Part shown: piece by piece, positions 7,213 to 42,974 of the stretch
Position numbering within the stretch: position 1 is the first letter of the stretch
How the letters are laid out: each line of letters opens with the position of its first letter
Position numbers and translations under genes: made by a program
NCBI GenBank assembly: GCA_041663005.1
Contig: JBAZRK010000001.1
Location: 93,360-157,359, forward strand
Direction of reading: 5' to 3'
Length of the DNA stretch: 64,000 nucleotides
Source of the DNA: Minisyncoccota bacterium
Lineage (GTDB): Bacteria; Patescibacteriota; Minisyncoccia; Phycocordibacterales; UBA9973
Notes under the pieces: generated by a model
The model's input: only the letters and a program-made list of their open reading frames with translations
The model's database searches: none
Told to the model about the DNA's origin: nothing

Positions 7213-7227
7213 TAAATTAATTCAAGA

Positions 7228-22349: not shown

Positions 22350-22598
22350 TTCCCCTCCTTTCAGGGGTGTTTTGCGACCCCTTAAGAACGGGGGTGAGGT
22401 TAGAGCATTGTTAATGGAAAGAACAACACTGATGTATTTTTACCACAAAACCGAGTAATCCACAAGAAAATTTAATCTGAATTTAATAGATGAGCTTGAG
22501 CTTATGCGGCTACAAATAATTTTTCGCCATCGCTCAAAATTTTCGCAGTCCACCCCTCGTGGTTTTGCGTGCTCGTAAAACATTGCTGCGGTTGACCC

Positions 22599-22628
22599 AG
22601 AACGAAAAAAAGCGCAACAGTGCGCTTT
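22599..22628 (-). terminator. intrinsic terminator downstream of tRNA-Arg (- strand)
   Basis: Hairpin AGCGCAC-TGTT-GCGCT followed on the - strand by TTTTTTT. Confidence 0.5.
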
Positions 22629-29880: not shown

Positions 29881-29904
29881 GTTTGTTGATTATACTAAGA
29901 GTTA

Positions 29905-29933
29905 TTGCCAAATGTCCAGTTTAATGTTATAAA
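29905..29933 (+). promoter_or_regulatory. candidate sigma70-type promoter (TTGCCA-17-TATAAA) for the first GC-rich ORF
   Basis: -35-like and -10-like hexamers 17 nt apart, about 50 nt upstream of GGAGGAG-ATG at 29984. Confidence 0.35.
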
Positions 29934-29983
29934 AATGTCGGAACTCGCCACGCAGAGTGGTGAGTCAACGGAGGAGAGAAACA

Positions 29984-30544
29984 ATGAGACGACGCATCAT
30001 TGTGATTCACAACTGCGATTACAAGTCAGCGGAAATCCAGGATGTCCTCTGGCGCGCGGACGCCGATGCGCGCTGGATCACGAGTAAATATGCCGAGGAG
30101 GTGGGGTTCTGGAAGGGAAGGACACCTCCTACTGGACACAAGGCTCTCGCGGTCGTCGTGTTCCTCGTCGACGATGTCATCGTCGACCAGTTCGTCAGCC
30201 CGCGGAGGCAGGAGCTCGAGGTCTTCGTCCGTAGCTGGGTCAACCCCGACTACGGAAAGGACGACGAGCGCAGCACCGCGGCTCCGAGCGCCGAACATCT
30301 CGAGAGGATGCGCCAGATCGAGGCGTCGCCTGTTCGCTCGAACCACGTGCCGCACCTGAGCGCCACGGAGATGGCCACGGACCACGACGGCATCGCGACT
30401 GTCGTCCACCCGTCGACGCGCATCGAAGTGCCGCCCCCGCCGCGCCCCGACCGGCGGGAGATGTCCGTCCACACCTGGGAGGAGGATGCGAGACAGGAAG
30501 CGCCCGTCCGCATCAACTCTGACGCCCGTAAGATCACCGGCTAG
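29984..30544 (+). CDS. hypothetical protein, GC-rich cassette 1
   Basis: GGAGGAG RBS 6 nt before the ATG. Strong G/C bias at third codon positions in this frame only. The protein is R/D/E/P-rich and unlike neighbouring host proteins. Confidence 0.55.
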   Translation: MRRRIIVIHNCDYKSAEIQDVLWRADADARWITSKYAEEVGFWKGRTPPTGHKALAVVVFLVDDVIVDQFVSPRRQELEVFVRSWVNPDYGKDDERSTAAPSAEHLERMRQIEASPVRSNHVPHLSATEMATDHDGIATVVHPSTRIEVPPPPRPDRREMSVHTWEEDARQEAPVRINSDARKITG

Positions 30545-30560
30545 CGGTCGCGCCAGAGAA

Positions 30561-30712
30561 CCCCGCCGTGACGTTTGTTAGGTCACGGCGGGGGAGGCCA
30601 AGTTCCTTTTCACAATTTTTTTCGTTTTACTTCTCTCGAGCCGCTGGCTCGTAATTATCGAGCCTTTGCGGACTAGAGACTGCACTGGCTCTTTTTCGTA
30701 ATAGTAGCGTGA
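30561..30712. repeat. cassette-end module copy 1: identical 33-nt perfect palindrome plus two downstream hairpins and a T-run
   Basis: CCCCGCCGTGAC-GTTTGTTAG-GTCACGGCGGGG followed by GAGGCCAAGTT. Then hairpin CGAGCC-GCTG-GGCTCG, then GAGCC...GGCTC followed by TTTTT. Confidence 0.6.
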
Positions 30713-30723
30713 TTTTTTAGTAG

Positions 30724-30732
30724 TGCTATAAT
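30724..30732 (+). promoter_or_regulatory. extended -10 element TGCTATAAT upstream of ORF 30785
   Basis: TGnTATAAT match lies about 50 nt upstream of an AAGGAGAT RBS and the ATG. Confidence 0.35.
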
Positions 30733-30784
30733 TTAAATATTAACAATAAATAAAAAATTTATGCCCTCAGAAGGAGATAACCCA

Positions 30785-31051
30785 ATGACAGCTCGCCAAC
30801 CGGAACATAAAAAGCTATTGCCGCAGCGTGGGCAATTGCTACAGCTAAGCAGCGGGTTTGACAGTCGACGGACTGATTTAGCAACCTACGGCAGAGACCC
30901 CTATTTGGTCTTGGAAGTTGTCGGCGACAAAGTCCACGTACGCAATGCTGATGGCCAGGAAGTGGATATACCCTTATCAAAGGTATCTTTACACTCATTA
31001 ACAGACAGCGAGCATTATATAAAGACGCACTTCCCAGATTTTAAGAAATAA
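30785..31051 (+). CDS. hypothetical small protein (88 aa), cassette 2
   Basis: AAGGAGATAACCCA-ATG RBS. Moderate-GC codon usage that differs from the host. Confidence 0.5.
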   Translation: MTARQPEHKKLLPQRGQLLQLSSGFDSRRTDLATYGRDPYLVLEVVGDKVHVRNADGQEVDIPLSKVSLHSLTDSEHYIKTHFPDFKK

Positions 31052-31064
31052 TTTTGAGTTATTG

Positions 31065-31098
31065 AAACGGCTCAACACTGTTGAGCCGTTTCTCGTTT
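31065..31098 (+). terminator. hairpin terminator after ORF 30785
   Basis: AAACGGCTCAACA-CTG-TTGAGCCGTTT followed by CTCGTTTG. Confidence 0.5.
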
Positions 31099-31156
31099 GC
31101 GGCAGCAGAACCTCGCGGAACATAAAAAGTCTTCGAGGCTTTTTCATTTTCCCAAG

Positions 31157-31185
31157 TTGACAGAACGCCCTAAAGTAGGTAATTT
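31157..31185 (+). promoter_or_regulatory. promoter module TTGACAGAAC-N-TAATTT (copy 1)
   Basis: TTGACA, 17-nt spacer, TAATTT. The module sits 17 nt upstream of CAGGAGGAAGCG-ATG. Confidence 0.5.
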
Positions 31186-31202
31186 ATGTGCAGGAGGAAG
31201 CG

Positions 31203-31418
31203 ATGGACAGCCACATTCGAATTACGCTGCCGGAATGGAATCACCGCGGTGTGGTCGAGCAGGTTGCCAAGCTCCTCGACCGACCCGTTGTCATCGTGAC
31301 ATGGGACGTAAAGTCCCTCACGATTAAGTCTAACGAAGCCCCCTTCAGTGGGAAAGACGTGGTGCGGGTTCAGAAAGATCTCGGTTTCACCGCCGAGATG
31401 CTCTACGAGCCCATCTAG
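31203..31418 (+). CDS. hypothetical small protein (71 aa), first gene of a 3-gene GC-rich operon
   Basis: AGGAGG RBS and GC3-biased codons. Confidence 0.5.
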   Translation: MDSHIRITLPEWNHRGVVEQVAKLLDRPVVIVTWDVKSLTIKSNEAPFSGKDVVRVQKDLGFTAEMLYEPI

Positions 31419-31432
31419 GAGGAGAGAGAAGC

Positions 31433-31708
31433 ATGAAAGCTCTGATGAAGGTCGGGATGATTCCCGACAAAACCCCGTTTGAGACCGCGGAAGCAGTTCG
31501 CGATCTCTTCGGTCGCAGTACTCGCCTCGTCTCGACCGACGAGGAAAAGAGGGAGGTTGTCTTGCAGTCGCTGACAATTCCCTTCTGCAAGGAGGATGCG
31601 GCGTCGGTGCGCCGCAATCTCAAGGTGGCCGCCGAGATGCTCGGAAAGCCGGAGGTGCCGGCCGCCGAAGCCAATGATGAACCCCACGTTCACCCGTGGG
31701 TCGACTAA
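31433..31708 (+). CDS. hypothetical small protein (91 aa), operon gene 2
   Basis: GGAGGAGAGAGAAGC-ATG RBS, 14 nt after the previous stop. Confidence 0.5.
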   Translation: MKALMKVGMIPDKTPFETAEAVRDLFGRSTRLVSTDEEKREVVLQSLTIPFCKEDAASVRRNLKVAAEMLGKPEVPAAEANDEPHVHPWVD

Positions 31709-31719
31709 GGAGGAGAAAG

Positions 31720-31977
31720 ATGTACATCACAGTTCGGAGTAACAGTGCAGAAATCGCTGAGGCTCGTCTTCTTCAGTCAGCCGTTTCCCGGCGGCTGGGG
31801 AAAGCGCTCATCTGGGCGCGTCTCGGCAGGGCAATCGTCATTTTCGGGCACAAGCAGGAGGACCAGCTCACCCCCGGAGACGTGCAGCTCCTCAACGGCG
31901 ACAAGAGGTTTGTCGCCCATGAGAGCACTGAGGAGGAGCTGAGCCGTTCGGGGCTGAGGATCCCGCAGGCTTCGTAG
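31720..31977 (+). CDS. hypothetical small protein (85 aa), operon gene 3
   Basis: TAAGGAGGAGAAAG-ATG RBS. Start reassigned to MYITVRS. Confidence 0.5.
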   Translation: MYITVRSNSAEIAEARLLQSAVSRRLGKALIWARLGRAIVIFGHKQEDQLTPGDVQLLNGDKRFVAHESTEEELSRSGLRIPQAS

Positions 31978-31993
31978 TCCTCCTTCCAGAGCA

Positions 31994-32127
31994 CCCCGCC
32001 GTGACGTTTGTTAGGTCACGGCGGGGGAGGCCAAGTTCTTTCAACAACAAGAAATTTTTTTCTCGAGCCACTCGGCTCGAACATCGAGCCTTGTGGACCG
32101 GAAACGCTTCACGAGGCTTTTCTTATT
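31994..32127. repeat. cassette-end module copy 2
   Basis: The 33-nt palindrome and GAGGCCAAGTTC are identical to copy 1. Then hairpin CGAGCC-ACTC-GGCTCG, then AGCCT...AGGCT followed by TTTTCTT. Confidence 0.6.
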
Positions 32128-32128
32128 T

Positions 32129-32560
32129 TTAGACCATAGTTAACTTCGCGCCCTTTTTCAAATACCAAATCGAAAGAATAAAAAGCAAAATATAAAAAAC
32201 GAGGCCATAAGCGCACGTAGGCAGACCCAAGCTATACTCCGTCCCGCCTGCAAGGAGTTTCCCAATTTCCGGTACAGTAAAATATCCGGCAAAGAGAATT
32301 CCAAGCCCAGATACTGTGCCAATAATTTTCAACATAGATTTTTCTTCAATCGTCTTCACCAGACCCAAGAGAGCGGTAAGGAAAATAATTAGAAACATTC
32401 CAAAGCCGAAATAACAAGCTGGGTAACCTAGGAAATAAGGGCAAGGTTCAGATAGCGCACAAGTGGATGTGAAAAATTTGACCCCACTAAGATAACCCGA
32501 AAACAATAACCCCGCGAGCCCGAGCCAAAACATAGTTTTAGCATAATTTAAGGTTTTCAT
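32129..32560 (-). CDS. small polytopic membrane protein (VKOR/DsbB-like thiol-oxidoreductase candidate), with host-like composition
   Basis: Four to five TM helices. Cys pair TSTCALSEPC in a loop. AT-rich codon usage like the flanking host genes. Confidence 0.5.
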   Translation of the reverse strand: MKTLNYAKTMFWLGLAGLLFSGYLSGVKFFTSTCALSEPCPYFLGYPACYFGFGMFLIIFLTALLGLVKTIEEKSMLKIIGTVSGLGILFAGYFTVPEIGKLLAGGTEYSLGLPTCAYGLVFYILLFILSIWYLKKGAKLTMV

Positions 32561-32621
32561 AAGCGTATTATATCACGTAAAGTCCACAGAAATTTGCTAG
32601 CTTTATGTGATTTTTATCAAT

Positions 32622-32650
32622 TTGACAGAACCGTTTTTGTGATGTAATTT
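32622..32650 (+). promoter_or_regulatory. promoter module TTGACAGAAC-N-TAATTT (copy 2)
   Basis: Same architecture as 31157: TTGACAGAAC, 17-nt spacer, TAATTT, then AAGTGCGGGAGG...ATG. Confidence 0.5.
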
Positions 32651-32669
32651 AAGTGCGGGAGGATTCGGC

Positions 32670-32975
32670 ATGATCATTTTGGTCTTGAGGGGGGAAGTGG
32701 CGATGTCTCGCACGGTCGTGGAAATTCTGCAGGGGGTGGATATCCGCCTCTCTATTTCAGGGGATTGGTTGGACAGAATGCATCACCAGGATGCGCTCAT
32801 CAACCAAAAAATCGTCGTGAGCCCCAACAACATAGCTTACCCCCGCCTGTTTGTGGCACAGGGAGGGGTTACGGAGTTTGCCGCGTATGCGGTAACCGAC
32901 ACGATGGCCCGGCAGGCCATCGAGCTCAACAGTGCCCTCGCCAAGCGAGCGAGGTTGCAGGAGGCAGAGAGATGA
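32670..32975 (+). CDS. hypothetical protein (101 aa), cassette 3 gene 1
   Basis: GGGAGG RBS and GC3-biased codons. Confidence 0.45.
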   Translation: MIILVLRGEVAMSRTVVEILQGVDIRLSISGDWLDRMHHQDALINQKIVVSPNNIAYPRLFVAQGGVTEFAAYAVTDTMARQAIELNSALAKRARLQEAER

Positions 32976-33229
32976 AGAAGGTCACCATCAGCGGAGTTTC
33001 CCGGCAGCTTGCCATCGGCGCGCTCGAGCTCATCCTTGACCTCGTCCCCGGCGCAACGTCCGTCGCGTGGGGGGACGACAAGGTCGTCGTCGTCACCGAC
33101 GACGTCGAAGTCGAGGCTCTGGCAACCCTCGCCGTGGCATACGGTGAGGACGAGGGGCTCTCCATCGAAGAGATCGAAGAGATCCTCCCGCCGCGGCCGT
33201 ATGTGCCCTCCGACGCCCCGCACTGCTAG
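32972..33229 (+). CDS. hypothetical acidic protein (85 aa), translationally coupled to 32670
   Basis: ATGA start/stop overlap at 32972-32975. The product has D/E/V-rich tracts (VVVVTDDVEVEAL). Confidence 0.45.
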   Translation: MKKVTISGVSRQLAIGALELILDLVPGATSVAWGDDKVVVVTDDVEVEALATLAVAYGEDEGLSIEEIEEILPPRPYVPSDAPHC

Positions 33230-33244
33230 TGCGGGGCCGCGGAA

Positions 33245-33385
33245 CCCCGCCGTGACGTTTGTTAGGTCACGGCGGGGGAGGCCAAGTTCTTTCAACAAAT
33301 TTTTTTTCTTTTCCCCGAACCCGGTTTCCGAGGTTCGTATCAAGAGCCTCAATGGAAATCCTTTGCGGCTCTTTTCAATTCTAAT
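33245..33385. repeat. cassette-end module copy 3
   Basis: Identical 33-nt palindrome plus GAGGCCAAGTTC. Then hairpin CGAACC-...-GGTTCG, then AGAGCC...GGCTCT followed by TTTC. Confidence 0.6.
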
Positions 33386-33471
33386 TTCTTTTCTTATTGA
33401 TTTAAATTAAAAATTTTGTATTATGAAATCGGCTAGTACCCTCGCAAGAGGCTAAGCCGGGAGGGCATTCG

Positions 33472-33690
33472 ATGACCAAGACGGTTGAAGTAGCTCCCGA
33501 GCAGTTTCCCGACCCGCACAATGTGCGGGAAAACGCGCTGAACGCGCTGTCGGCTTCGCCGACACCTCAGGCCGTGCGTGGCCACCTGCCTCGCCGGGAG
33601 AGGAGGGCGGTTCATCGGGAACTCGTCTACACGAGTGACCGGCAGCAGCCCCACCCGGATCTCCACGATCCGGGAAGACTCCCGAAGTAG
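33472..33690 (+). CDS. hypothetical small protein (72 aa)
   Basis: GGGAGGG RBS before the ATG, GC-rich. Confidence 0.35.
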   Translation: MTKTVEVAPEQFPDPHNVRENALNALSASPTPQAVRGHLPRRERRAVHRELVYTSDRQQPHPDLHDPGRLPK

Positions 33691-33743
33691 AGACCATCGC
33701 GGCGAGAGTCCTAACCTCTCGTCGCACCCTTAACACCGAAACA

Positions 33744-33772
33744 AAAGACGCCCAGTTAGGGCGTCTTTTGCA
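33744..33772 (+). terminator. intrinsic terminator
   Basis: AAAGACGCCC-AGTTA-GGGCGTCTTTTG. Confidence 0.5.
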
Positions 33773-33805
33773 TTTAAGCTTAAAAATGTTATGATATTTT
33801 CCATT

Positions 33806-33877
33806 GGCCCTATCGTCTAACGGTTAGGACATCGGCTTTTCAAGCCGGTAATCCGGGTTCGATTCCCGGTAGGGTCA
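33806..33877 (+). tRNA. tRNA-Glu (anticodon TTC)
   Basis: Acceptor GGCCCTA/TAGGGTC, anticodon stem TCGGC/GCCGG with loop TTTTCAA, T-arm CCGGG-TTCGATT-CCCGG. Confidence 0.85.
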
Positions 33878-35528
33878 CAGACAAGGATTTTTTATCCTGA
33901 AATTCGTCATATAGCTTGTAAGGTATAGATAGTTTTGGTGTTCCATTAAGTAATTCAGTATATGTTGGCAACTCATCAAAAACCAACCCATAAAATGCTC
34001 TTAAAAGAGTAAGATTCTTTTGTTTTATAAGGTATTCTTCTGGGTGTGCCATTAAGTTTTTTACATATCCTACAAAAGAGTGGACATCGTTCTCCTGAAC
34101 CTCAATTCCGTTTCTTTGCTCTCTGGTTTCTTCTATGCGTTGATGAAGTTTATTAATCTCTTTTTCAAGTTCTGCTCGTATAATTTCATTTGTTGTAGAA
34201 GTAAACGCATTAATCTTTTGTGTTTTCTCAAAATCAAGTTCTGCTACAGTTGTTCCCACTTTAACAGAAAACTCACCAAGTTCTTTTTCTTTCTCTCTAA
34301 ATTTATTTATCAGTGTTGCTTCAAGGGCTTTCAAAAAGCTTTTGTCTACGTGCTTTAATTTTTCTATGCAGACAGCAAGACCATCTTCAAATTCTTTCTT
34401 TGAAACTCTATATTGCTTGTGATTCCTAGCACAATGATATGCTGGAAAACTCTTGCCAGATTTACCAGTAGATGCACTACCTAAAAATGGTTTTTGACAT
34501 TCAGGGCACAACACAACTTCTTTAAAAGGATATAGGGGATTATCTTTCATTCGTTTTAACTGATGTGGGTTATAATCTTTATGTATCAAAATAGTTCCAT
34601 CCTTTTTCTCTTCAATAAAAAAATTGCCTTTATTTGCTCTGTTGTATTCGTCTATGCTCACCAACCCCTTGTAGTTAGTCCTAATAGGCGTTTTTAGCCA
34701 CTTTTCAGTATTAATTCCTGCATAGATGGGTCTTTGTATTATTTTCTGTAATTGCTTCACTGTAAGCTTTACACCGCCTCTCGAACCCAATATTTTATCT
34801 TTTGACCTTGACCACCTGTTTTGTTTCTTCGAACGATATCCAATAGCATTTATGTGGTCAACAATCTGCTGGTCTGTGTAAATGCCCGAAGCTCTCATTT
34901 CAAACATAGTAATAAAAAAGTGGGCTCGTTTAGGGTCTGAAACTTGAATCATTTTTTTCTTACCCTCAACGTAAATTCTTTCATTTACGAAACCATCATT
35001 TTCTTGCCTAACTTTATACCCTTCTCTTACTAAAGTTGCTTCTGCTCCAATCATTCTAGTAAGAATTTGATTAACTTCAATTTTACCTTGTTGAGCCATA
35101 ACAAGTTCTGTAATTTCACTAGGGCGTGTGATACTCCAGTCATATTCGAGACCAAGGTGTTCAAGAGTATTTTTTGTGGGCTGTATGATACCGTTAGAAT
35201 CAATTAATTGAACACCGTAATCAGCTAGTCGCTTTTTTAGACTTTCATACCCAAGAGTTCCATTTCTTGTAAAACGGTCTATGGAACGAAATATAATAAC
35301 ATCAACTTTTTTGGGAGACTTTTTTATAAAAGAAATAATGTCTTCAATAACAGGTCTGTCGTCTTTTCTACCAGAAAGTTGTTCCTTGAATGTTTTTAAA
35401 ACATCGAGTTTAAATTTTTCAGCAACACCGAGACAGATTTTTTCTTGCACTTCAAGACTTTCACCTTCTTGGGCTTGCTTTGCGGAACTAACTCGGCAAT
35501 AAATAATACAATTCTTATTTTCTTTCAT
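33840..35528 (-). CDS. large serine recombinase (resolvase/invertase catalytic domain plus recombinase domain plus zinc-ribbon/coiled-coil)
   Basis: N-terminal CIIYCRVSSAKQ contains the catalytic Ser motif. DRFTRN is present. 562 aa with C-terminal CPEC...C...HC. The last 38 nt are antisense to the tRNA-Glu 3' half. Confidence 0.85.
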   Translation of the reverse strand: MKENKNCIIYCRVSSAKQAQEGESLEVQEKICLGVAEKFKLDVLKTFKEQLSGRKDDRPVIEDIISFIKKSPKKVDVIIFRSIDRFTRNGTLGYESLKKRLADYGVQLIDSNGIIQPTKNTLEHLGLEYDWSITRPSEITELVMAQQGKIEVNQILTRMIGAEATLVREGYKVRQENDGFVNERIYVEGKKKMIQVSDPKRAHFFITMFEMRASGIYTDQQIVDHINAIGYRSKKQNRWSRSKDKILGSRGGVKLTVKQLQKIIQRPIYAGINTEKWLKTPIRTNYKGLVSIDEYNRANKGNFFIEEKKDGTILIHKDYNPHQLKRMKDNPLYPFKEVVLCPECQKPFLGSASTGKSGKSFPAYHCARNHKQYRVSKKEFEDGLAVCIEKLKHVDKSFLKALEATLINKFREKEKELGEFSVKVGTTVAELDFEKTQKINAFTSTTNEIIRAELEKEINKLHQRIEETREQRNGIEVQENDVHSFVGYVKNLMAHPEEYLIKQKNLTLLRAFYGLVFDELPTYTELLNGTPKLSIPYKLYDEFQDKKSLSVTLPGIEPGLPA

Positions 35529-35814
35529 ATACCAATTTATTGTTGAATGGGCTAATTATAACATTTTTTTCCTCAATTTTTTCACGCCACATAACATAAA
35601 ATGCTTCAGCTAAATCATCTTGTATTTGTCTAGCTTTAATAATCTCTTCTTCTGATAAACCAATATCATCTACATCTCCTAATGCTTTTTTATATTCTTC
35701 AAGTCCTATCATCCAATACTTTATTCTAATAAAAACCTTGCAAATAAGCTTCAGCTCTATTGTTAAAATTAATAAAAAAACCTTTTCCAGAAGAAAAAGA
35801 TTTACGACAAGCAT
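35515..35814 (-). CDS. small hypothetical protein upstream of the recombinase, overlapping it by 14 nt (possible regulator or directionality factor)
   Basis: The ORF overlaps the recombinase start. The acidic product has no recognisable HTH. Confidence 0.3.
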   Translation of the reverse strand: MLVVNLFLLEKVFLLILTIELKLICKVFIRIKYWMIGLEEYKKALGDVDDIGLSEEEIIKARQIQDDLAEAFYVMWREKIEEKNVIISPFNNKLVYERK

Positions 35815-35959
35815 CCTTCCCTTTAGGGGTTTTGGCTAGCACCGTTGCCACTCGACTGGCTGGTTGCTGGGCGGATTAACGAGCCAAAACTCTACCGCCT
35901 CTCCTGATACTGATATTTAATTTTACTTACCTAATAAGGATAGCACGGTTCTAAAACTG

Positions 35960-36165
35960 ACCCTGTAAAACTGTGGACAACTTTTTTAAGCTATATAATA
36001 CAAGGTTCTCAAAGAGTCGGAAAATTACCCCTATGAGTGCAAAAACCCCTAAGGATATATGCCCGCTAAAGAGTGCGAAAAGTCCTTTCCTCCTACTATC
36101 GTAGTTGTCTATAAACTCCTTCAAAGAGTGTAAAAACTCCCTCCCAAGGCGTGTAAAAACTCCAA
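35960..36165. repeat. iteron-like direct repeat array (consensus GAGTGYRAAAASYCC, plus two TAAAACTG units)
   Basis: Copies at about 36014, 36035, 36071, 36126 and 36149, with TAAAACTG at 35966 and 35981. Spacings are irregular (21-55 nt). Confidence 0.5.
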
Positions 36166-36649
36166 ATTTGCCTTTTAACGGTGATTTGTTATAAACTCTA
36201 CTTACAACTGAATAGTGAGCGTATCCAGAGCGAGGCGAGAGATTGGACTCAATGACCCTCCAACAACCTACCCAAAGGGCAAGGTGCTATCCACCAAGAT
36301 GACAGAAATGTTGTCGGGAAAGATGCAAAGGTCGAACATTTTTCCTCATTATTAGAGGAAATTTTTATTTTATGGAAGTAGTTAAATTAAGTATTAGACT
36401 TGGTCGTGATTCTTTCCAATATAATTCGGAAGTTCTTAGAAAGAATGGAAAATTTTACTATCGTGCAAATGGTGCAATCATAAAAATAACACCAATTGAG
36501 GCAAGATGTGTTATAAGAAACCCACGTCTTTACTATTTCTCTATTGCCTTGAAACTACACTTATTGATTAACAAAAAGCTTAAATCTTGATAGTATTAGC
36601 TTACAAGTAAATAAGAGACCTAACTCTTAAAGATTTTCTTTAAGATATG

Positions 36650-36795
36650 GTCGAAAGACCCATAGAAGATACTGAACCCCACGTGTTCAGCAACCTTCTA
36701 TGGGCTATACAGGGAAACTTGTATAGGGTCGCAAGACCTAGCTGGCGTGGGGTTCTGTGTTTATACCACGCTAGCTATTATCAGCTAGCTTTTTA
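36650..36795 (+). ncRNA. candidate structured RNA or cis-regulatory leader (uncharacterised)
   Basis: Nested perfect helices: CCCATAGAAG/CTTCTATGGG, CTGAAC/GTTCAG, CTATACA/TGTATAG, GNRA-capped GGTC-GAAA-GACC and GGTC-GCAA-GACC. A long-range 10-bp pairing GAACCCCACG/CGTGGGGTTC suggests a pseudoknot. Confidence 0.3.
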
Positions 36796-36799
36796 TTTT

Positions 36800-37033
36800 A
36801 TGAAAAAAGAAACAATAATGAGTCAGGTAATAATACTAGTTTTGGGGCTTACTTTAATTTTTATTCTGAGAGAGTTTCTAACAGATAAAATTATAGTGGA
36901 AGCTATGAGAGTTCAAGTAGAAACAATGGCAAGTAGAGCTGGATGTTTTGCTAACGCAAGAGAAAAAAATATTAATGATGGCGATTGCACGAGCATAGAT
37001 ATAACTGCTTACAAACTTTATCCTAAATATTAA
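36800..37033 (+). CDS. small membrane protein (77 aa)
   Basis: Start reassigned to MKKETIM. One TM helix (VIILVLGLTLIFIL). Sits immediately downstream of the structured region. Confidence 0.4.
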   Translation: MKKETIMSQVIILVLGLTLIFILREFLTDKIIVEAMRVQVETMASRAGCFANAREKNINDGDCTSIDITAYKLYPKY

Positions 37034-37043
37034 TTATAAATTT

Positions 37044-37688
37044 ATGAAAAAACATCTCACAATTTTGTTTCTCACAGTATTAATAATACCTTCTATCGCT
37101 TCTGCAACTTGGTGGAATCCACTTAGCTGGTCAAAAAATTCCAAGCAAATAGATACCATTGAACCAACATCAACTAAGCCAGTTGAAAAATCTATTCCTG
37201 TATCTGAAACTAAAACCACTGAATCAAAAGTTGTTGAAAGAATAGTAGAAAAACCAACAATCCAAACAATAACCGTGCAAGACCCCGCACTTCAAGCGAG
37301 GGTAAATATTCTTGTGGCGGAAAATGAATCTTTAAAAGCCCAAGTTGGTAGACTCCTTGAATCCAACAAATCACTCAATAAAGAATTATTGGCTTGTGAA
37401 GATACCCCAGCATCTACTTTTTCTGCTGATGACCAATGTGAGTATGCCCAAGATTCTCTAAAAGATTTTCTTGAACAGTATACCGAGTTAAGTGCTGAAA
37501 TAAGTAAGGAGCGAGAGAAAATAAAGAAAAACCCTGAAAGTGCCGAGAAACCTTACATAGATATTTATCATCGTTCTGGATTGAATGCTATGCTCAGTAG
37601 TTTCAATATTTCATCAAGTCAAAAACTCAAACCCCTTATTAAGGGAAAGGAATCTGCTGAATCAGCAGTAGCACTCTATTGCAACTAA
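37044..37688 (+). CDS. secreted coiled-coil protein of unknown function
   Basis: Signal peptide MKKHLTILFLTVLIIPSIASA, then a T/K/E-rich linker, then a coiled coil (LVAENESLKAQVGRLLESNKSLNKELL). Confidence 0.55.
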   Translation: MKKHLTILFLTVLIIPSIASATWWNPLSWSKNSKQIDTIEPTSTKPVEKSIPVSETKTTESKVVERIVEKPTIQTITVQDPALQARVNILVAENESLKAQVGRLLESNKSLNKELLACEDTPASTFSADDQCEYAQDSLKDFLEQYTELSAEISKEREKIKKNPESAEKPYIDIYHRSGLNAMLSSFNISSSQKLKPLIKGKESAESAVALYCN

Positions 37689-37869
37689 AGACCTAGAACT
37701 CTCTTCCTGTGGCATCGTAGAGCTTCCAGAACCTTGTCAGAATCTTGCCATCCGTTTTTTAAAGTATCCTAATTTTCAACGTTTTGGTTTTTGAGGACTG
37801 ATAAGGTAGTGTTAATAGTAAAGTGTCGGAAAATTCTCGTAAACCGTGTAGAAGTATTATACTTAAGTA

Positions 37870-39471
37870 ATGTTTAAAAACGAGAAAGGAGAAACAACTC
37901 TTCATATTGATACAAGGCTTGGAGAACTTACCACAGGTGAACCAAACGTGAACGAAGAAAAACTCAAGCAAGCTTTAAAGGCATACAATTTAAAAGAAGC
38001 CCTTTTAACTTTGTCTGAACTATCAAAAAACATTTTCAACGAAAACATTCCTGAACCATTTCAAAAGATGGGGAAAACTGGGATGCGTCATCCCGCAGGT
38101 TTAATTATTGCACAATTTGCTATTGAATATTTAGCTAGTGTTTTTATTATTTCAGGAGCTAACGATTATAAAAAAGAGAGCGTAAAAACAAAAGACAACA
38201 TATTGGGTCTTTTTAATATATATAATAATTCTCTTATACAACCTGTTTTTTTAGGCAATCATTTATCAACTTTACTTATACCGATGTATTTTGTTCAACT
38301 TAGAAGCCAATTTAGCCCCCAAGACCTTTTCACTAGGCAATGGATGATTTTTAGTGAAATGAGAAAAAAGACTAATAATATTTTTGAAGATATAAACAAA
38401 ATTATTTTTGACAACACAAATCTTACCATTGAAGAAATATCAGGGATTTCTTTTTCAATTTTTGCTTACTTAATACAAAATCCACTATTTAATATAGGAA
38501 ACTTAGAAGGACATACGGTTGAAAGCTTTAAAAATCTTTTAACTAAAGAAAAAATTGATTCATTTTTAAACTTATATACAGCTACTTATTCACAAATTCG
38601 TGAGTTAGACCAAAAGTTAAATCCGATAGACCTTAAAGAATATACAAAAGCCCGATTTAACCCCTTATGGAAAAAGCCAATAATAAAATTAGATGAAAAT
38701 TTATTTTTAGCACCTAGTTTAACAGCTTACACAACCGCAAGCTTTTATGGATTATTCTGGTGGTTTGACGATTACTATCGAGAGCAATCACAGAAGAAGC
38801 AAATGGATTTTAGGAAATATTTTGGAATTTTATTTGAAAATTACGCTGGAGAAGTTCTTTCAGATTTGTATGGAGAAAGTTCACTCAGAAAACAAATAAA
38901 GTATGGATTAAAGGGTAAAAAAATTGATTTTACAGATTGGGTAGTAATTAAAAACGATAAAGCGTATCTTTTTGAAGTTAAGGCATATCAATTTCCTCTA
39001 GAGGTTCTTCAAAAAGGAAAATCTGATGATGTTAGGAAACAGGTAATAAAAAAAATTGTTGAATCAATAAAACAGATATATCAAAGGTCTCAAGACATAC
39101 CTAAGCACAAGGAACTATCAGAGTTCAATAAAAAAGTAATAATCCCAATTGTGGTTTTTTATGATTTGCCTTTTATCTCTACTTCTCCTTCTTTGTATAA
39201 AGACGATATACTCAAAGCTCTTAACGGTTTAGATTCTAAATATAATGGGATTAAAGATTTTAAATATTACCTAATGAATATTGATGAATTGGAAGATTTT
39301 TATTATTGCTCTGATAATATTGAGATAGAGGATATCTTTGAGAATATTAAAGATAACCCAGCCAAAGGGGTTAATTCTGAAATTATTATCCATATAAAAG
39401 ACAAGAGTCGAAAGAATTTTCTCGATAGACAATTTAATAAATATTTAGATGACTTAGTGCCTGAATTATAA
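37870..39471 (+). CDS. hypothetical protein with a C-terminal PD-(D/E)xK-like nuclease motif (operon gene A)
   Basis: 533 aa. KKIDFTDWVVIKNDKAYLFEVKAY matches a D...(D/E)xK arrangement. No other domain recognised. Confidence 0.55.
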   Translation: MFKNEKGETTLHIDTRLGELTTGEPNVNEEKLKQALKAYNLKEALLTLSELSKNIFNENIPEPFQKMGKTGMRHPAGLIIAQFAIEYLASVFIISGANDYKKESVKTKDNILGLFNIYNNSLIQPVFLGNHLSTLLIPMYFVQLRSQFSPQDLFTRQWMIFSEMRKKTNNIFEDINKIIFDNTNLTIEEISGISFSIFAYLIQNPLFNIGNLEGHTVESFKNLLTKEKIDSFLNLYTATYSQIRELDQKLNPIDLKEYTKARFNPLWKKPIIKLDENLFLAPSLTAYTTASFYGLFWWFDDYYREQSQKKQMDFRKYFGILFENYAGEVLSDLYGESSLRKQIKYGLKGKKIDFTDWVVIKNDKAYLFEVKAYQFPLEVLQKGKSDDVRKQVIKKIVESIKQIYQRSQDIPKHKELSEFNKKVIIPIVVFYDLPFISTSPSLYKDDILKALNGLDSKYNGIKDFKYYLMNIDELEDFYYCSDNIEIEDIFENIKDNPAKGVNSEIIIHIKDKSRKNFLDRQFNKYLDDLVPEL

Positions 39472-39479
39472 TAATTTAT

Positions 39480-40628
39480 ATGAATATTAGCGAAATAATG
39501 AAAAGTGCTCCCAGATATCTTGCGATGCGGTATGGCTCATTGTATACCTATGTTTGGCAAAGTTTATTTCCCAAGGAATATATAAACAAAGTTCTTTACA
39601 GAATTGACAACCCAAAAGAAAAAAAGGAAAAGTTTTTCCGAATGAAAACAATAGCAGAGGAGGCATCTGTGTTAGTTTTCCTTTTCTATACCAAAAAAAT
39701 GTTAATTGAAGGGGCTAATGCCACAAAGAACACGGTTGATATCCTAAAGGAACTAGATATTAAAGAATTTCGCTTGGGGAAAACAAGGTTTGCTGGAAGA
39801 AACAATAACGTCATATTGGGAGATAGGCTTGCGGAAAGACTTCTACGTTTACTTGATGATGATGTAAAAAGACTTCTTTCAAGAACTGAATATATGTCTC
39901 AAATTATTGACCACTACAGAAGGTTAAGAAACGAGGAACGCACATATAATTATTTATTCGACAAAAAAGAAGCGGAAGTAAAATTAAAAAGATTTTTTGC
40001 AAATGAAAAACCACGCCTACGGACTTTCGGAAATGTTGTAAATCAAGTGTTTGAAGCCTACACTTTTGCCTCTACCATAAAATGGTATCAAAGTAATGAG
40101 TGGTTAGTTCACATAATTAATCCAAAAGTAAAAAGCAAGGGTATTTTTCGGTTGAAATTTTCAACTATGGGTGCACCAAATAAATACAGTTATGCAATAT
40201 GTGAAAAAGGAGAAAAAAAATGCCAAATAAGACACCAGTTAAGAGTAACTACAGAATCCTATCGAGATAAGAATAACTATAGAGCTAATATATGCTGTGA
40301 TATTTCGGTCATAAATAATTTAGATTTGAACCTTTATTCAACTGCTATGGCTATCCCAAACAAGGAATTGATTTCATTTGGTGAAGTTAAACATATGTCT
40401 GCTTTTGCGGAGCTTTTAGCGAACTTTGTTGGATTAGTTCACGAACTACAACCACGTAGATTAAGAACAATTAGAACCAGAAGATGGGCGAGAAATGAAC
40501 ATATTTCACCATTTCTAAACGTCAGTGGGTTTTTGCAACCTACTGCAAAAGGCTTGAATGAAACAATTGAAAAGAGAAAATATGACATTGATGTATACCA
40601 TTATGAAAATAAAATGGTAAATATCTGA
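39480..40628 (+). CDS. hypothetical protein (operon gene B)
   Basis: 382 aa, starting 8 nt after gene A. No recognisable motif. Confidence 0.5.
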   Translation: MNISEIMKSAPRYLAMRYGSLYTYVWQSLFPKEYINKVLYRIDNPKEKKEKFFRMKTIAEEASVLVFLFYTKKMLIEGANATKNTVDILKELDIKEFRLGKTRFAGRNNNVILGDRLAERLLRLLDDDVKRLLSRTEYMSQIIDHYRRLRNEERTYNYLFDKKEAEVKLKRFFANEKPRLRTFGNVVNQVFEAYTFASTIKWYQSNEWLVHIINPKVKSKGIFRLKFSTMGAPNKYSYAICEKGEKKCQIRHQLRVTTESYRDKNNYRANICCDISVINNLDLNLYSTAMAIPNKELISFGEVKHMSAFAELLANFVGLVHELQPRRLRTIRTRRWARNEHISPFLNVSGFLQPTAKGLNETIEKRKYDIDVYHYENKMVNI

Positions 40629-40679
40629 AAGAAATTAAATATATGTTAAAATAGGATAATTTCTAAAAAACAAATTAAA

Positions 40680-41642
40680 ATGATAAAAATTACACTTGAT
40701 ACAAATTGCGTTATAAACCTACTTAACTTTAATGCTGAAACACCTACTTCTGTAGATGAACTTTCCGAAATTATAAAATATGGGCTTGATAGTAATGCTA
40801 ATATCGCTATTACAACCAGAGTTGAAAGCGAATGTGAAGGAGACAAAAATAAAGAACGCAGTAAGGAAATGATACGTAAGATACAAATGTTGCCTGTAAT
40901 TGGCACAGTTGCACGTTGGAATACCTCAAAATGGGATGGCGGTGATGTTTGGGGAGGTCAGGAACACGAAAAGTTGTCTGATGAACTTACAAAAATAATT
41001 TTTCCAGCTCTAAAAAAAGAAGATGCTCACTATAAAAATAAGATAAATGATATTGACCATCTCGTAGGGCACATTATTAATAAAAGAGACATATTTGTAA
41101 CCGATGATGCACAGATTCTTAAAAAATCTGAGACACTTAAAGCAAGTCTCAATTTAACAGTGATGAGTCCAAAACAAGCCCTAGAGTATCTAAATTCTAG
41201 AGGTGATAAAACAATCCTAGTCCAAGATTTTTATGATAAGTTTCTAGAACAGAAAAAATTAATCTTAAAATTTCTCACATCTGAAAAAGATTTGGAACTG
41301 CTCGATAAGTATGAAGAAAATCGTCAATGGTTAATCCGTAAATACCCCAACATTAAAGATGGATTGGGAGATTTTAAAGTGCAACAGATGTCAGTTCCAA
41401 TGGGCGGACAAAGAGCCTTTACTCAAATTGATATTGTTTCTTTGCAGTTCTTTAATAAAAAACTAAATGCCTTGTTGGTGGAAAGAAATCCTCTGAATAT
41501 TCCAGATATTATATCTAATAATCCCGATAGCTACGCTGTCGTTTATTTAAGTGAAGAAGAGAAACTAGGTAAAACCATCAGTTTCTTAAATAAAATAGAG
41601 GATTTACTACTTGGATACTTAGGAAAATTAGAAGGAAAATAA
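40680..41642 (+). CDS. PIN-domain protein with a roughly 150-aa C-terminal extension (operon gene C)
   Basis: N-terminal IKITLDTNCVINLL contains the first PIN Asp. RDIFVTDDAQIL matches the fourth acidic motif. Confidence 0.6.
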   Translation: MIKITLDTNCVINLLNFNAETPTSVDELSEIIKYGLDSNANIAITTRVESECEGDKNKERSKEMIRKIQMLPVIGTVARWNTSKWDGGDVWGGQEHEKLSDELTKIIFPALKKEDAHYKNKINDIDHLVGHIINKRDIFVTDDAQILKKSETLKASLNLTVMSPKQALEYLNSRGDKTILVQDFYDKFLEQKKLILKFLTSEKDLELLDKYEENRQWLIRKYPNIKDGLGDFKVQQMSVPMGGQRAFTQIDIVSLQFFNKKLNALLVERNPLNIPDIISNNPDSYAVVYLSEEEKLGKTISFLNKIEDLLLGYLGKLEGK

Positions 41643-42271
41643 TGACCTCAATTAAAGTCTTAAAGAAAAGGTTCGAAGAAGTTACCAATGCTGTCTCTCG
41701 GTTGGTTGATGATAGATATTTTTTCCTTGAATATAAGAAATACCTCGAAGAACACCCGAATATTGATAAAAATAACGAATTTTTATATTTTATAGGTTTA
41801 AATTATGTAGAAACCACTTGTTTGGGGATATTCCGTCAGGTTGACCGCAATCCAAAATCTCAAAGCCTATTAAACATACTAAAGACTATACAAAAAGAAC
41901 ACGAATCTTTTACTCTTGGATTCTTTTGTAGAAAATACAGAAGAAGTAATGCAGGCTTAGGTAATGGAATAAAAGATTTTTCTCAGTTTGCTCTTAAAGA
42001 TGGTAAAAAAATAAGTCCTAAAAAAGTTAAATCCGATATATTGGCTCTTATAAAAATAACCAAACCCATTGTTAAATATAGACACAAATTTGTAGCTCAC
42101 AGAAATATAAGGAAGGTCACAATAAACGTGAAAATGAATGACTTATACACGGTAATTGATTTTTTAGAGAAAATGGTGAGTAAATATCAGCTCCTTATCA
42201 ATCAAGCAGGAATGCCTTCGTTACGTGCAGGAAATTCGCATCCTAATCTGCAAGCCGTCTTTAAAGAATAA
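41642..42271 (+). CDS. putative HEPN-like protein (operon gene D)
   Basis: TAATG overlap with gene C. YRHKFVAHRN contains an R-x5-H match. The assignment is tentative. Confidence 0.45.
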   Translation: MTSIKVLKKRFEEVTNAVSRLVDDRYFFLEYKKYLEEHPNIDKNNEFLYFIGLNYVETTCLGIFRQVDRNPKSQSLLNILKTIQKEHESFTLGFFCRKYRRSNAGLGNGIKDFSQFALKDGKKISPKKVKSDILALIKITKPIVKYRHKFVAHRNIRKVTINVKMNDLYTVIDFLEKMVSKYQLLINQAGMPSLRAGNSHPNLQAVFKE

Positions 42272-42275
42272 TTGT

Positions 42276-42788
42276 ATGAAAACTTCCGCACCTATTTCTA
42301 AAAGTCAAAATTCAGAAAGTATATTTTTTCAAAATATACTTCATTTTCTTTTATCTACTCACATAATACCGCTAAGAGAATATTCTTTGCAGTATGTTCC
42401 AAAAAATCAAGCAAAAATCGTAACTCTAAAAACGAGTTTTGGAGAAGATATATCTACTTATCTTGAAGAATTACCAACACCTTCAGACAAAGATTTTAAT
42501 CAAATTTCAGCCCGTATTTTAATTAATGGATGTTATGAAATCTTTAAAGAAAGTTCTATAAAAGAAATAACTTCTTCTGAAGTGGTTGAATTTTTTCGAC
42601 ATATACGAAACGCATCATCACATAAAGGTAAATTTATATTTAAAAAAGACGAGCCAAGGAAAAAAGCGAAATGGCGAGAGCTGGAGATTACTAGAGACTT
42701 AAACGGCTCTGACCTATTTGATTTTATAGCTATTGGCGATGTCATATTACTTTTACAAGATATTGATGATTGGGAAATCATAAAGTAA
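42276..42788 (+). CDS. HEPN-domain protein with canonical RNxxxH motif (operon gene E)
   Basis: Start reassigned to MKTSAP, 4 nt after gene D. FFRHIRNASSHKG carries R-N-x3-H near the C-terminus. Confidence 0.55.
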   Translation: MKTSAPISKSQNSESIFFQNILHFLLSTHIIPLREYSLQYVPKNQAKIVTLKTSFGEDISTYLEELPTPSDKDFNQISARILINGCYEIFKESSIKEITSSEVVEFFRHIRNASSHKGKFIFKKDEPRKKAKWRELEITRDLNGSDLFDFIAIGDVILLLQDIDDWEIIK

Positions 42789-42974
42789 AACTTTTGACTC
42801 TAGTTCTATAACTGATTGGGTAATTATTCAAATTGCTTTTACGCCATAAAACCTTTATAATAAAGGAGCTTTGAAACATTTAGGAAACAAGTTCAATGTG
42901 AGCGAAAACATTATTCCAAGTAATAATCATATTTTCAATGGAGTTCCATTGCAGATATGGTGAGCTCACTGCGA

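Follow-up and report, generated by a model that had tools for sequence, protein, structure and literature searches.

A variable hotspot of small, GC-rich gene cassettes with shared predicted expression scaffolds beside tRNA-Glu in a Paceibacteria clade

We analyzed a 64,000-nucleotide (64-kb) stretch of a Minisyncoccota genome (GenBank assembly GCA_041663005.1, contig JBAZRK010000001.1), hereafter the window, with a focus on a 3.9-kb block at 29.9–33.8 kb that a preliminary description had singled out as an array of cassettes foreign to its host. As that description had placed it, the block occupies the interval between a nucleotidyltransferase (NTP-transferase, NT) gene and tRNA-Glu; genes for NT, GDH and TsaD flank the array on one side, and tRNA-Glu, a large serine recombinase, several unknown genes and AbiU2 on the other. 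It contains eight small open reading frames (ORFs A–H) on the + strand at 29984–33690, arranged as five autonomous mini-operons (A; B; C-D-E; F-G; H), together with one ordinary membrane gene. Bacteria of the candidate phyla radiation (CPR)/Patescibacteria are obligate symbionts with tiny genomes, and little is understood of how they gain accessory genes and put them to use. The locus described here is a variable hotspot of a small Paceibacteria clade. Its features are collected in Table 1, in which promoters and terminators are consensus-level sequence predictions throughout.

Base composition sets the ORFs of the block apart from the rest of the window. In 300-nt windows, GC content reaches 0.61–0.69 at 30.0–30.6, 31.2–32.1, 32.7–33.3 and 33.45–33.75 kb, compared with a mean of 0.42 and a maximum of 0.57 outside the block. 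The early impression of a GC-rich block holds for these ORF islands, but its figure of roughly 60% does not hold for the block as a whole, which averages 0.54 rather than 0.60 because AT-rich spacers and the membrane gene alternate with the GC-rich ORFs. Seven of the eight ORFs have GC contents of 0.56–0.66 and third-position GC contents (GC3) of 0.72–0.85 (GC/GC3: A, 0.64/0.82; C, 0.56/0.72; D, 0.59/0.73; E, 0.60/0.73; F, 0.57/0.72; G, 0.66/0.85; H, 0.64/0.73). These values lie 3.9–6.0 standard deviations (z) above the GC3 of the 38 host ORFs in the window (0.472 ± 0.063, maximum 0.62). The claimed third-position bias must therefore be restricted to these seven, since ORF B, with a GC3 of 0.48, is host-like in composition. 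Codon choice follows the same division: the fractions of CTC, GTC, ATC, AAG and GAG are 0.59, 0.48, 0.69, 0.75 and 0.67 in the cassettes and 0.21, 0.19, 0.22, 0.34 and 0.32 in host ORFs. The leaning of the cassettes toward CTC, GTC, ATC, AAG and AGG may resemble that of some high-GC methanogens.

The cassettes also differ from host genes in their translation signals. All eight ORFs have a Shine–Dalgarno (SD) sequence upstream of ATG (a 5–7-nt match to AAGGAGG at a spacing of 5–10 nt), whereas such a match occurs at the first start codon of just 1 of the 38 host ORFs, and still in 10 of 38 when the best of all candidate starts within the first 40 codons is taken. GGAGG ahead of a start codon that opens an ORF of 50 aa or more is found seven times in the block, every time at a cassette start, and 11 times in the remaining 60 kb, mostly within genes. 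Together with GC3 and codon usage, this use of SD sites upholds the view that the cargo is compositionally foreign and that its ribosome-binding sites are near perfect. The cassette ORFs show coding periodicity (GC3 > GC1 > GC2), and genes within an operon are separated by gaps of 11–14 nt or, for F and G, coupled by ATGA. Antisense ORFs were ruled out as true genes, as they lack ATG and SD signals and show the wrong GC periodicity. A reading of the block as structured non-coding RNA genes was likewise ruled out by the strong GC3 periodicity and the protein-level conservation of F and D; an Rfam scan of the block found nothing besides the tRNA. On the host side, a −10-like hexamer lies 4–10 nt upstream of the start codon in 18 of the 38 ORFs, including NT and the membrane gene, where TATAAT lies 8 nt and 6 nt 5' of the ATG, respectively (for example, 29881–29900 and 32561–32580). 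This arrangement suggests that leaderless mRNAs are widespread among host genes, most of which lack an SD.

The ORFs are bracketed by non-coding modules, to which we refer as scaffolds. They are AT-rich (GC 0.36–0.52), and only the ORFs are GC-rich. The predicted 5' scaffold consists of a sigma-70-type promoter and a 35–50-nt 5' untranslated region (UTR) ending in a near-consensus SD. The full 3' scaffold is a three-hairpin end module (H1, the linker GTTCTTYnAACAA, H2 and H3) that follows A, C-D-E and F-G; B has a shortened version and H a plain terminator. The originally proposed layout, in which a promoter leads into one to three small genes closed by a shared end module, was confirmed in these cassette-like units, and a 45-nt module, CCCCGCCGTGACGTTTGTTAGGTCACGGCGGGGGAGGCCAAGTTC, recurs at 30561, 31994 and 33245 with no mismatches, is absent elsewhere in the window and would be expected by chance in zero copies. 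Within the window, H1 is a perfect, invariant 12-bp GC stem with a 9-nt loop, and no U run directly follows it; between species, its stem sequence varies and its structure is retained. H3 reads as a canonical terminator hairpin, with compensatory changes in 4 of 11 aligned pairs around the conserved loop GCGGAACRTAAAAAGTC. The three end modules fold better than expected (z = −5.0, −7.5 and −5.1 for modules 1–3) and match the end-module profile with E-values of 1e-18, 2e-28 and 6e-25, respectively. End module 2 faces the 3' end of the convergent membrane gene. Exact scans for the H1 module returned no match in genome contigs, viral contigs or metagenome contigs. A genome-wide terminator or repeat family was unsupported, with the motifs confined to the block within the 64 kb.

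One further likeness concerns ORF B. The 14-nt H3 loop motif CGGAACATAAAAAG at 31116–31129 recurs exactly at 30801–30814, inside the N-terminal coding part of this ORF, and part of ORF B may derive from scaffold sequence.

Table 1. Features of the cassette block and its right-hand border (window coordinates).
Feature	Position	Strand	Details
Promoter/5' UTR module P_A (predicted)	29905–29983	+	TTGCCA 29905–29910, 17-nt spacer, TATAAA 29928–29933
P_A 5' UTR	29944–29976	+	Hairpin 29944–29964; SD GGAGGAG 29970–29976 (sequence reading)
Cargo ORF A	29984–30544	+	186 aa; N-terminal domain, then P/R/E-rich tail
End module 1	30553–30700	+	H1 30561–30593, GAGGCCAAGTTC and T-rich linker, H2 30637–30651, H3 with U run 30660–30696
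Cassette B	30727–31051	+	TGcTATAAT −10 element 30727–30732 (predicted), SD AAGGAG 30771–30776, ORF B 30785–31051 (88 aa)
3' module of B	31064–31145	+	Hairpin 31064–31092, H3-type terminator hairpin (predicted) 31107–31140, conserved loop GCGGAACATAAAAAGTC
Promoter module P_C (predicted)	31157–31202	+	TTGACA 31157–31162, 17-nt spacer, TAATTT 31180–31185, SD AGGAGG 31192–31197
Cargo operon C-D-E	31203–31977	+	C 31203–31418 (71 aa), D 31433–31708 (91 aa), E 31720–31977 (85 aa)
End module 2	31986–32130	+	H1 31994–32026, H2 32063–32080, H3 with U run 32086–32125
Embedded membrane gene	32129–32560	−	GC 0.41; TATAAT 6 nt 5' of ATG, leaderless-looking
Second P_C-type promoter module (predicted)	32622–32669	+	TTGACA 32622–32627, 17-nt spacer, TAATTT 32645–32650, SD GGGAGGA 32657–32663
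Cargo operon F-G	32670–33229	+	F 32670–32975 (101 aa), G 32972–33229 (85 aa, isoelectric point 4.1); F stop and G start overlap (ATGA)
End module 3	33237–33382	+	H1 33245–33277, H2 33316–33337, H3 with U run 33342–33378
Cassette H	33397–33770	+	Promoter-like TTGATT-16-TATTAT 33397–33424, SD GGGAGGG ~33459–33465, plain intrinsic terminator (predicted) 33747–33769
ORF H	33472–33690	+	72 aa, basic, probably disordered; GC3 0.73
tRNA-Glu(UUC)	33806–33878	+	Right-hand anchor of hotspot; same position in L084 (1165) and L141 (1731)

A contrast this sharp could in principle arise from a mis-assembly or a contaminant from a high-GC organism, as the preliminary description had cautioned, and the contrast is the sole argument for this explanation. 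The region is 100% identical in ENA ERZ27249449 and in the Logan assemblies of SRR18595301 and SRR6484324. The SRR18595301 contig covers GDH, NT and ORF A and hence the left junction, and the SRR6484324 contig covers B to E. Short Logan contigs end inside the repeated H1 hairpin, as would be expected for a true repeat. In addition, the composition switches every few hundred bases between GC-rich ORFs and AT-rich scaffolds, and the latter are homologous to scaffolds in sister Paceibacteria. Because the same sequence appears in separate assemblies and an orthologous layout is found in other metagenomes, chimerism is rejected; we regard its probability as close to negligible.

Evidence for a variable locus comes from related species, for which up to 13 kb per sister genome was compared with the 64 kb of this genome. 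In relatives whose NT is 44–55% identical, the order is tRNA-Ser, tRNA-Glu, a family-4-like uracil-DNA glycosylase (UDG), NT, GDH, tRNA-Val, TsaD and IleRS, and the gap between tRNA-Glu and NT is about 0.65 kb in two of them (L009 and L010). The UDG gene that precedes NT in relatives such as L004, L005, L007, L009 and L010 is absent from the window and may lie elsewhere in the genome; in its place, the interval holds the 3.9-kb block. Two sister Paceibacteria species, represented by loci L084 and L141, have the same architecture directly upstream of tRNA-Glu, and their TrxR is 86% identical to that of the window at the amino acid level. In L084, which is identical to L085 and L086 from a total of three metagenome assemblies and is syntenic with the window, the first unit consists of an SD, a GC-rich 83-aa ORF, the hairpin CCCTGCTCTCCGAC...GTCGGAGAGCAGGG, then AAGGGCTAGTAGTTCTTCAAACAA, H2 and H3. 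The second has a P_A-type promoter with a 5' UTR hairpin, a homologue of F (GC3 0.74), the hairpin CCCCCGC...GCGGGGG, ...GTTCTTTTTTAAC, H2 and H3, and the right end continues with tRNA-Glu and tRNA-Ser, without a recombinase element. L141, one of 119 loci recovered by scanning metagenome contigs with 46 nt of the tRNA, has an NT of 71% identity on the − strand, a P_A module, orf45 and orf101, an end module whose H1 is CCCTGCTCCGGC...GCCGGAGCAGGG, a P_C-type module, orf98, a further end module and tRNA-Glu. It carries an additional cassette of the same design 10 kb away, and all its cargo ORFs have a GC3 of 0.66–0.75. A third locus, the 829-nt contig L087, encodes a homologue of D behind a P_C-type promoter, adjoining a UDG gene fragment, with tRNA-Glu elsewhere on the contig.

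The scaffolds are homologous across these loci. P_A has homologues at L084 539–626 and L141 414–499 (nhmmer E 1e-17 to 6e-21, and blastn), the P_C profile matches at 31144–31202 and 32612–32667 of the window, L087 149–208 and L141 1154–1207, and the 3' module of B is homologous to L084 482–523 and L141 1106–1134. When run on 1.8 Mb of related loci, the profiles for the end module, P_A and P_C match only the window, L084/L148, L141/L136 and L087, and the signature of a hairpin followed by GTTCTTY occurs only in the first three of these. The scaffolds are native to the lineage. A stringent screen found a small, GC-rich, SD-led ORF upstream of tRNA-Glu in 4 of 94 loci (L141, L142, and L158 and L195, which share one ORF), and missed the cassette-bearing L148.

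Thus, non-coding modules are homologous across three species, and the ORFs that occupy orthologous slots between them are unrelated, a combination that indicates turnover of the cassettes. F itself lies behind a P_C-type promoter in the window and behind a P_A-type promoter in L084, with similarity beginning at the ATG, which implies that promoters, cargo and end modules have been re-assorted. In L005, a Nomurabacteria relative, a higher-GC ORF of 306 aa (6352–7272), reminiscent by eye of a sugar-phosphate isomerase/epimerase, lies between tRNA-Glu and UDG, a further sign that the interval is an insertion hotspot.

Two other ORFs in the related loci deserve mention. A 105-aa basic protein is encoded by an SD-led ORF (GC 0.60, GC3 0.75) at L195 2362–2679 and L158 7650–7967 (− strand), 250–550 nt upstream of tRNA-Glu in more distant relatives and without scaffold modules. 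A tiny SD-led ORF encoding MEKEKPPPPPPPPLPPPDDAEPWETTGFGD lies at L084 10–102, at the contig end and just 5' of the 83-aa cassette ORF; its PPPPRP stretch is also found in window ORF A.

An array in one orientation of unrelated small ORFs, each with a hairpin repeat behind it that does not vary within the genome, recalls sedentary chromosomal integrons, and it is possible to imagine a site-specific system in which H1 and the linker act as a site resembling attC or a Vibrio cholerae repeat (VCR), with the recombinase encoded elsewhere. The replacement of cargo between conserved flanks and the extra L141 cassette with the same type of end would fit such a system. However, there is no adjacent tyrosine recombinase, and the flanking gene and Pfam lists contain no Phage_integrase family. 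By sequence reading and folding, H1 lacks the R''/L''-L'/R' boxes, the RYYYAAC...GTTRRRY pair and extrahelical bases; GTTAGGT occurs only in the H1 loop, with no ACCTAAC partner, and Rfam gave no match. Each cassette has its own predicted promoter instead of a common Pc promoter, and homology breaks at the ATG, not at the hairpin. Taken together, we consider an integron-like system very improbable.

The cargo proteins are nearly all orphans. B–H were used in a full HMMER scan of 1.84 billion protein representatives, and A was compared with 5.8 billion proteins in clusters. ORF A found only its own cluster, ORF B occurs in the protein collection solely within its own metagenome-assembled genomes, and B–H together had only two matches beyond themselves. 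P0016, the homologue of F encoded by the L084 contigs, is 50% identical (E 2.7e-15), and its similarity includes the N-terminus, for which reason the start of F was placed at 32670. P0019 is a homologue of D (52% identity, E 2.6e-6); C and D are paralogues that form one family with it, and a search with the C/D-family profile recovered no further members. Searches of the cargo against Pfam, PHROG, PADLOC, NCBIfam and PDB sequences gave nothing significant. Nothing pointed to a locus of the Acr/Aca type in Pfam, PHROG, PADLOC or NCBIfam, helix-turn-helix families included; these are general libraries, and no dedicated anti-defence library was searched. One cargo family is modeled as a generic ferredoxin-like fold, and an AlphaFold2 model of F was poor (predicted local distance difference test score, 55.6) and was not used. 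The membrane gene, which had correctly been described as a host-composition gene embedded in the array, has a weak VKOR match (PF07884, E 2e-5, below the Pfam cut-off) and no homologue in any relative locus compared.

Our results support a model in which strongly expressed, insulated mini-operons are gathered in a hotspot and swap their cargo, via the shared scaffolds, with an unsampled high-GC pool; we give this model a probability of about one half. Portable expression scaffolds, each made of promoter, 5' UTR, SD and 3' module, would bracket one to three small cytoplasmic proteins and drive their strong, insulated expression, with the 5' and 3' hairpins probably stabilizing the mRNAs and H3 ending transcription. 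The cargo would be imported from a gene pool of higher GC content, swapped by recombination through the shared scaffolds, and slowly ameliorated toward the host, so that B and certain homologues would have come to lie near a GC3 of 0.5. The host-like or intermediate GC3 of B (0.48), the L087 homologue of D (0.54) and orf83 of L084 (0.51) fits amelioration after import. The proteins themselves would be fast-turnover accessory factors, for which a role in conflict or host interaction seems most plausible given their rapid turnover, small size, orphan status and mobile-element neighborhood. GC-biased gene conversion, another conceivable source of GC-richness, was discarded by reasoning, as the recombining scaffolds are AT-rich and GC-richness is confined to the ORFs. 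A stronger version of the model would have the promoter/SD and three-hairpin modules serve as docking or recombination sites of a cassette-capture and expression platform supplied from a higher-GC reservoir, perhaps the host mobilome. Such a platform would be integron-like in function, with no integron integrase or attC and with one promoter per cassette; we think this version quite doubtful.

Several observations count against exchange with a foreign pool. For A, B, C, E, G and H, neither the 1.84 billion representatives nor the 5.8 billion clustered proteins contain a relative from another genome, no phage or plasmid matched any of the eight proteins by tblastn, and scans of viral contigs with the P_A pattern, the linker pattern, the F family and the D family each returned zero. 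The lack of relatives among billions of proteins excludes a well-sampled high-GC donor, and it is composition that marks the cargo as foreign. No recombinase, direct repeats or excision products tied to the cassettes were found. The three identical copies of H1 could possibly reflect recent duplication or gene conversion and are not necessarily exchange sites. Strain polymorphism, sought via the exact NT protein, was not found, all assemblies of the strain being identical. Finally, any function assigned to the cargo, a conflict-related one included, is inference throughout.

The same orphan status would be expected if the cargo consisted of native fast-evolving or de novo lineage-specific genes, in which GC-rich codons and SD sites are kept by selection for high expression or for mRNA structure and stability. 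The scaffolds are conserved and clearly native, the cargo mRNAs fold somewhat better than shuffled sequences (z = −2.5, −2.5 and −5.8), and the scaffold motif in the N-terminus of B hints at the birth of an ORF from scaffold sequence. Codon use in F is also relevant. Among the 50 residues identical between F and P0016, 24 (48%) use different codons, and yet GC3 is 0.72–0.74 in both, compared with ~0.47–0.50 in their hosts. That a high GC3 has been kept despite 50% protein divergence disfavors neutral vertical descent and favors either repeated import from a high-GC source or an active bias. However, orthologous slots hold unrelated ORFs and not diverged orthologues, the spread of GC3 among cassettes (0.48–0.85) resembles amelioration more than uniform selection, and no host gene in 60 kb comes near the bias, with a maximum GC3 of 0.62. 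We therefore judge a native origin unlikely, though worth serious consideration.

The position beside a tRNA gene raises the question of mobile elements. In the window, tRNA-Glu and tRNA-Ser, neighbors in L004, are set apart by a separate low-GC element (0.27–0.38) of 9.1 kb at 33879–42974. Among the genes of this element are a large serine recombinase (33840–35528, − strand; Resolvase, Recombinase and Zn ribbon), with an ORF that extends into the 3' end of tRNA-Glu, an AbiU2-type HEPN protein (41642–42271) and several unknown ORFs. The recombinase had been noted as lying directly beside the cassettes, but a link between the two was not sustained: the gene belongs to the separate element, and both L084, which has no such element, and L141, in which nothing matches the recombinase of the window, contain cassettes. 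A predicted tRNA-Glu promoter precedes the tRNA gene, to the right of cassette H.

Two further observations concern this neighborhood. Within the serine-recombinase element, Rfam predicts a LOOT RNA (RF03000) at 36617–36739 (+) that overlaps the start of an ORF at 36647–37033; it scores 81 bits, where the gathering score is 46 (E 1e-13). In addition, ~110 nt at 22505–22613 (− strand), just downstream of tRNA-Arg, are 83% identical to the tRNA-Glu/tRNA-Ser spacer of L084 (1266–1373); this stretch has no Rfam match and could be a small RNA or a remnant resembling an attachment (att) site.

A decayed prophage, plasmid or integrative-element remnant at tRNA-Glu, with the cassettes as moron-like or early-gene units, would account for much of this setting. 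The tRNA-adjacent site is a proven integration hotspot, with the serine-recombinase element on the other side of the tRNA and similar recombinases abutting tRNA-Glu in L005, L101, L117 and L178. Promoter-gene-terminator units of deviant GC content fit the description of morons, and phage early regions typically encode small orphan proteins, acidic or basic, in tight operons. On the other hand, the interval at 29.9–33.8 kb is free of phage and plasmid genes, integrases and att repeats, and the block is on the 5' side of the tRNA, not the 3' side. The phage or plasmid derivation first suggested was not supported, with no match in PHROG or in phage, plasmid and viral-contig collections. A layout that persists in three species (TrxR 86%) is easier to reconcile with a locus that is being maintained than with a relic in decay. 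As for tRNA-derived sequence, H2 of end module 3 (33316–33337, CGAACCCGGTTTCCGAGGTTCG) resembles the T-arm and anticodon-stem region of tRNA-Glu (p ~0.003–0.03 versus shuffles). The end modules were ruled out as att remnants of tRNA-Glu, since seven of eight modules have no similarity to the tRNA and the third module of the window has one weak match. A decayed remnant is distinctly unlikely in our assessment.

Several implications follow for the biology of these bacteria. The locus is a clean case of orphan minigenes of foreign composition wired into native, re-usable expression scaffolds, with cassette replacement at an orthologous site across species and SD-led translation of the cargo, set in a genome where most of the host's genes have no SD and many look leaderless. 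We found no account of this phenomenon in the literature searched. Should the scaffolds mediate exchange, they would offer CPR bacteria a new route for gene flux and represent a natural design for an expression cassette, and the cargo proteins would be prime candidates for symbiont–host or symbiont–phage factors. Otherwise, the locus is a small, well-documented variable islet that could serve to mark strain-level variation.

Comparison with known systems helps to place the locus. Phage morons are autonomous promoter-gene-terminator units of deviant composition. The cassettes resemble them in having their own predicted promoters and terminators, small accessory genes and a deviant composition, and in being set between unrelated genes, so that, as judged from predicted signals, they are autonomous units of unlike composition. 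In contrast to morons, which lie within a (pro)phage genome, the block is outside any prophage, flanked by a housekeeping gene and a tRNA, and has no phage homology; moreover, its promoter and terminator modules are re-used across species while only the ORF changes. Integron arrays and clusters of attC sites lacking integrases (CALINs), with their VCR-like attC sites, share with the block the one-directional order of unrelated orphan ORFs, identical hairpin repeats and content that differs between related genomes. The block differs from them in lacking IntI, the attC architecture and a common Pc/attI, in having its own promoters and SD sites, and in comprising only 3–5 units.

Two further classes share parts of the design. 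Like tRNA-linked islets, the block adjoins a tRNA gene, has an atypical GC content and strain- or species-specific content, and has a serine-recombinase element on the other side of its tRNA; unlike them, it lies on the 5' side of the tRNA, encodes no integrase and is not flanked by direct repeats derived from the tRNA. BOX, BIME/REP and Correia elements are modular intergenic repeats that supply promoters or terminators, and the composite hairpin modules of the block (H1, H2, H3, P_A and P_C) are similarly re-used and re-assorted between genes. However, the latter are present in very low copy number, are confined to the hotspot within the 64 kb, and bracket ORFs of foreign composition. In summary, the locus comes closest in its workings to phage morons and, at the level of the array, to chromosomal integron cassettes, without passing the defining tests of either, and it is best placed among cassette-type variable islets, as one limited to a small CPR clade.

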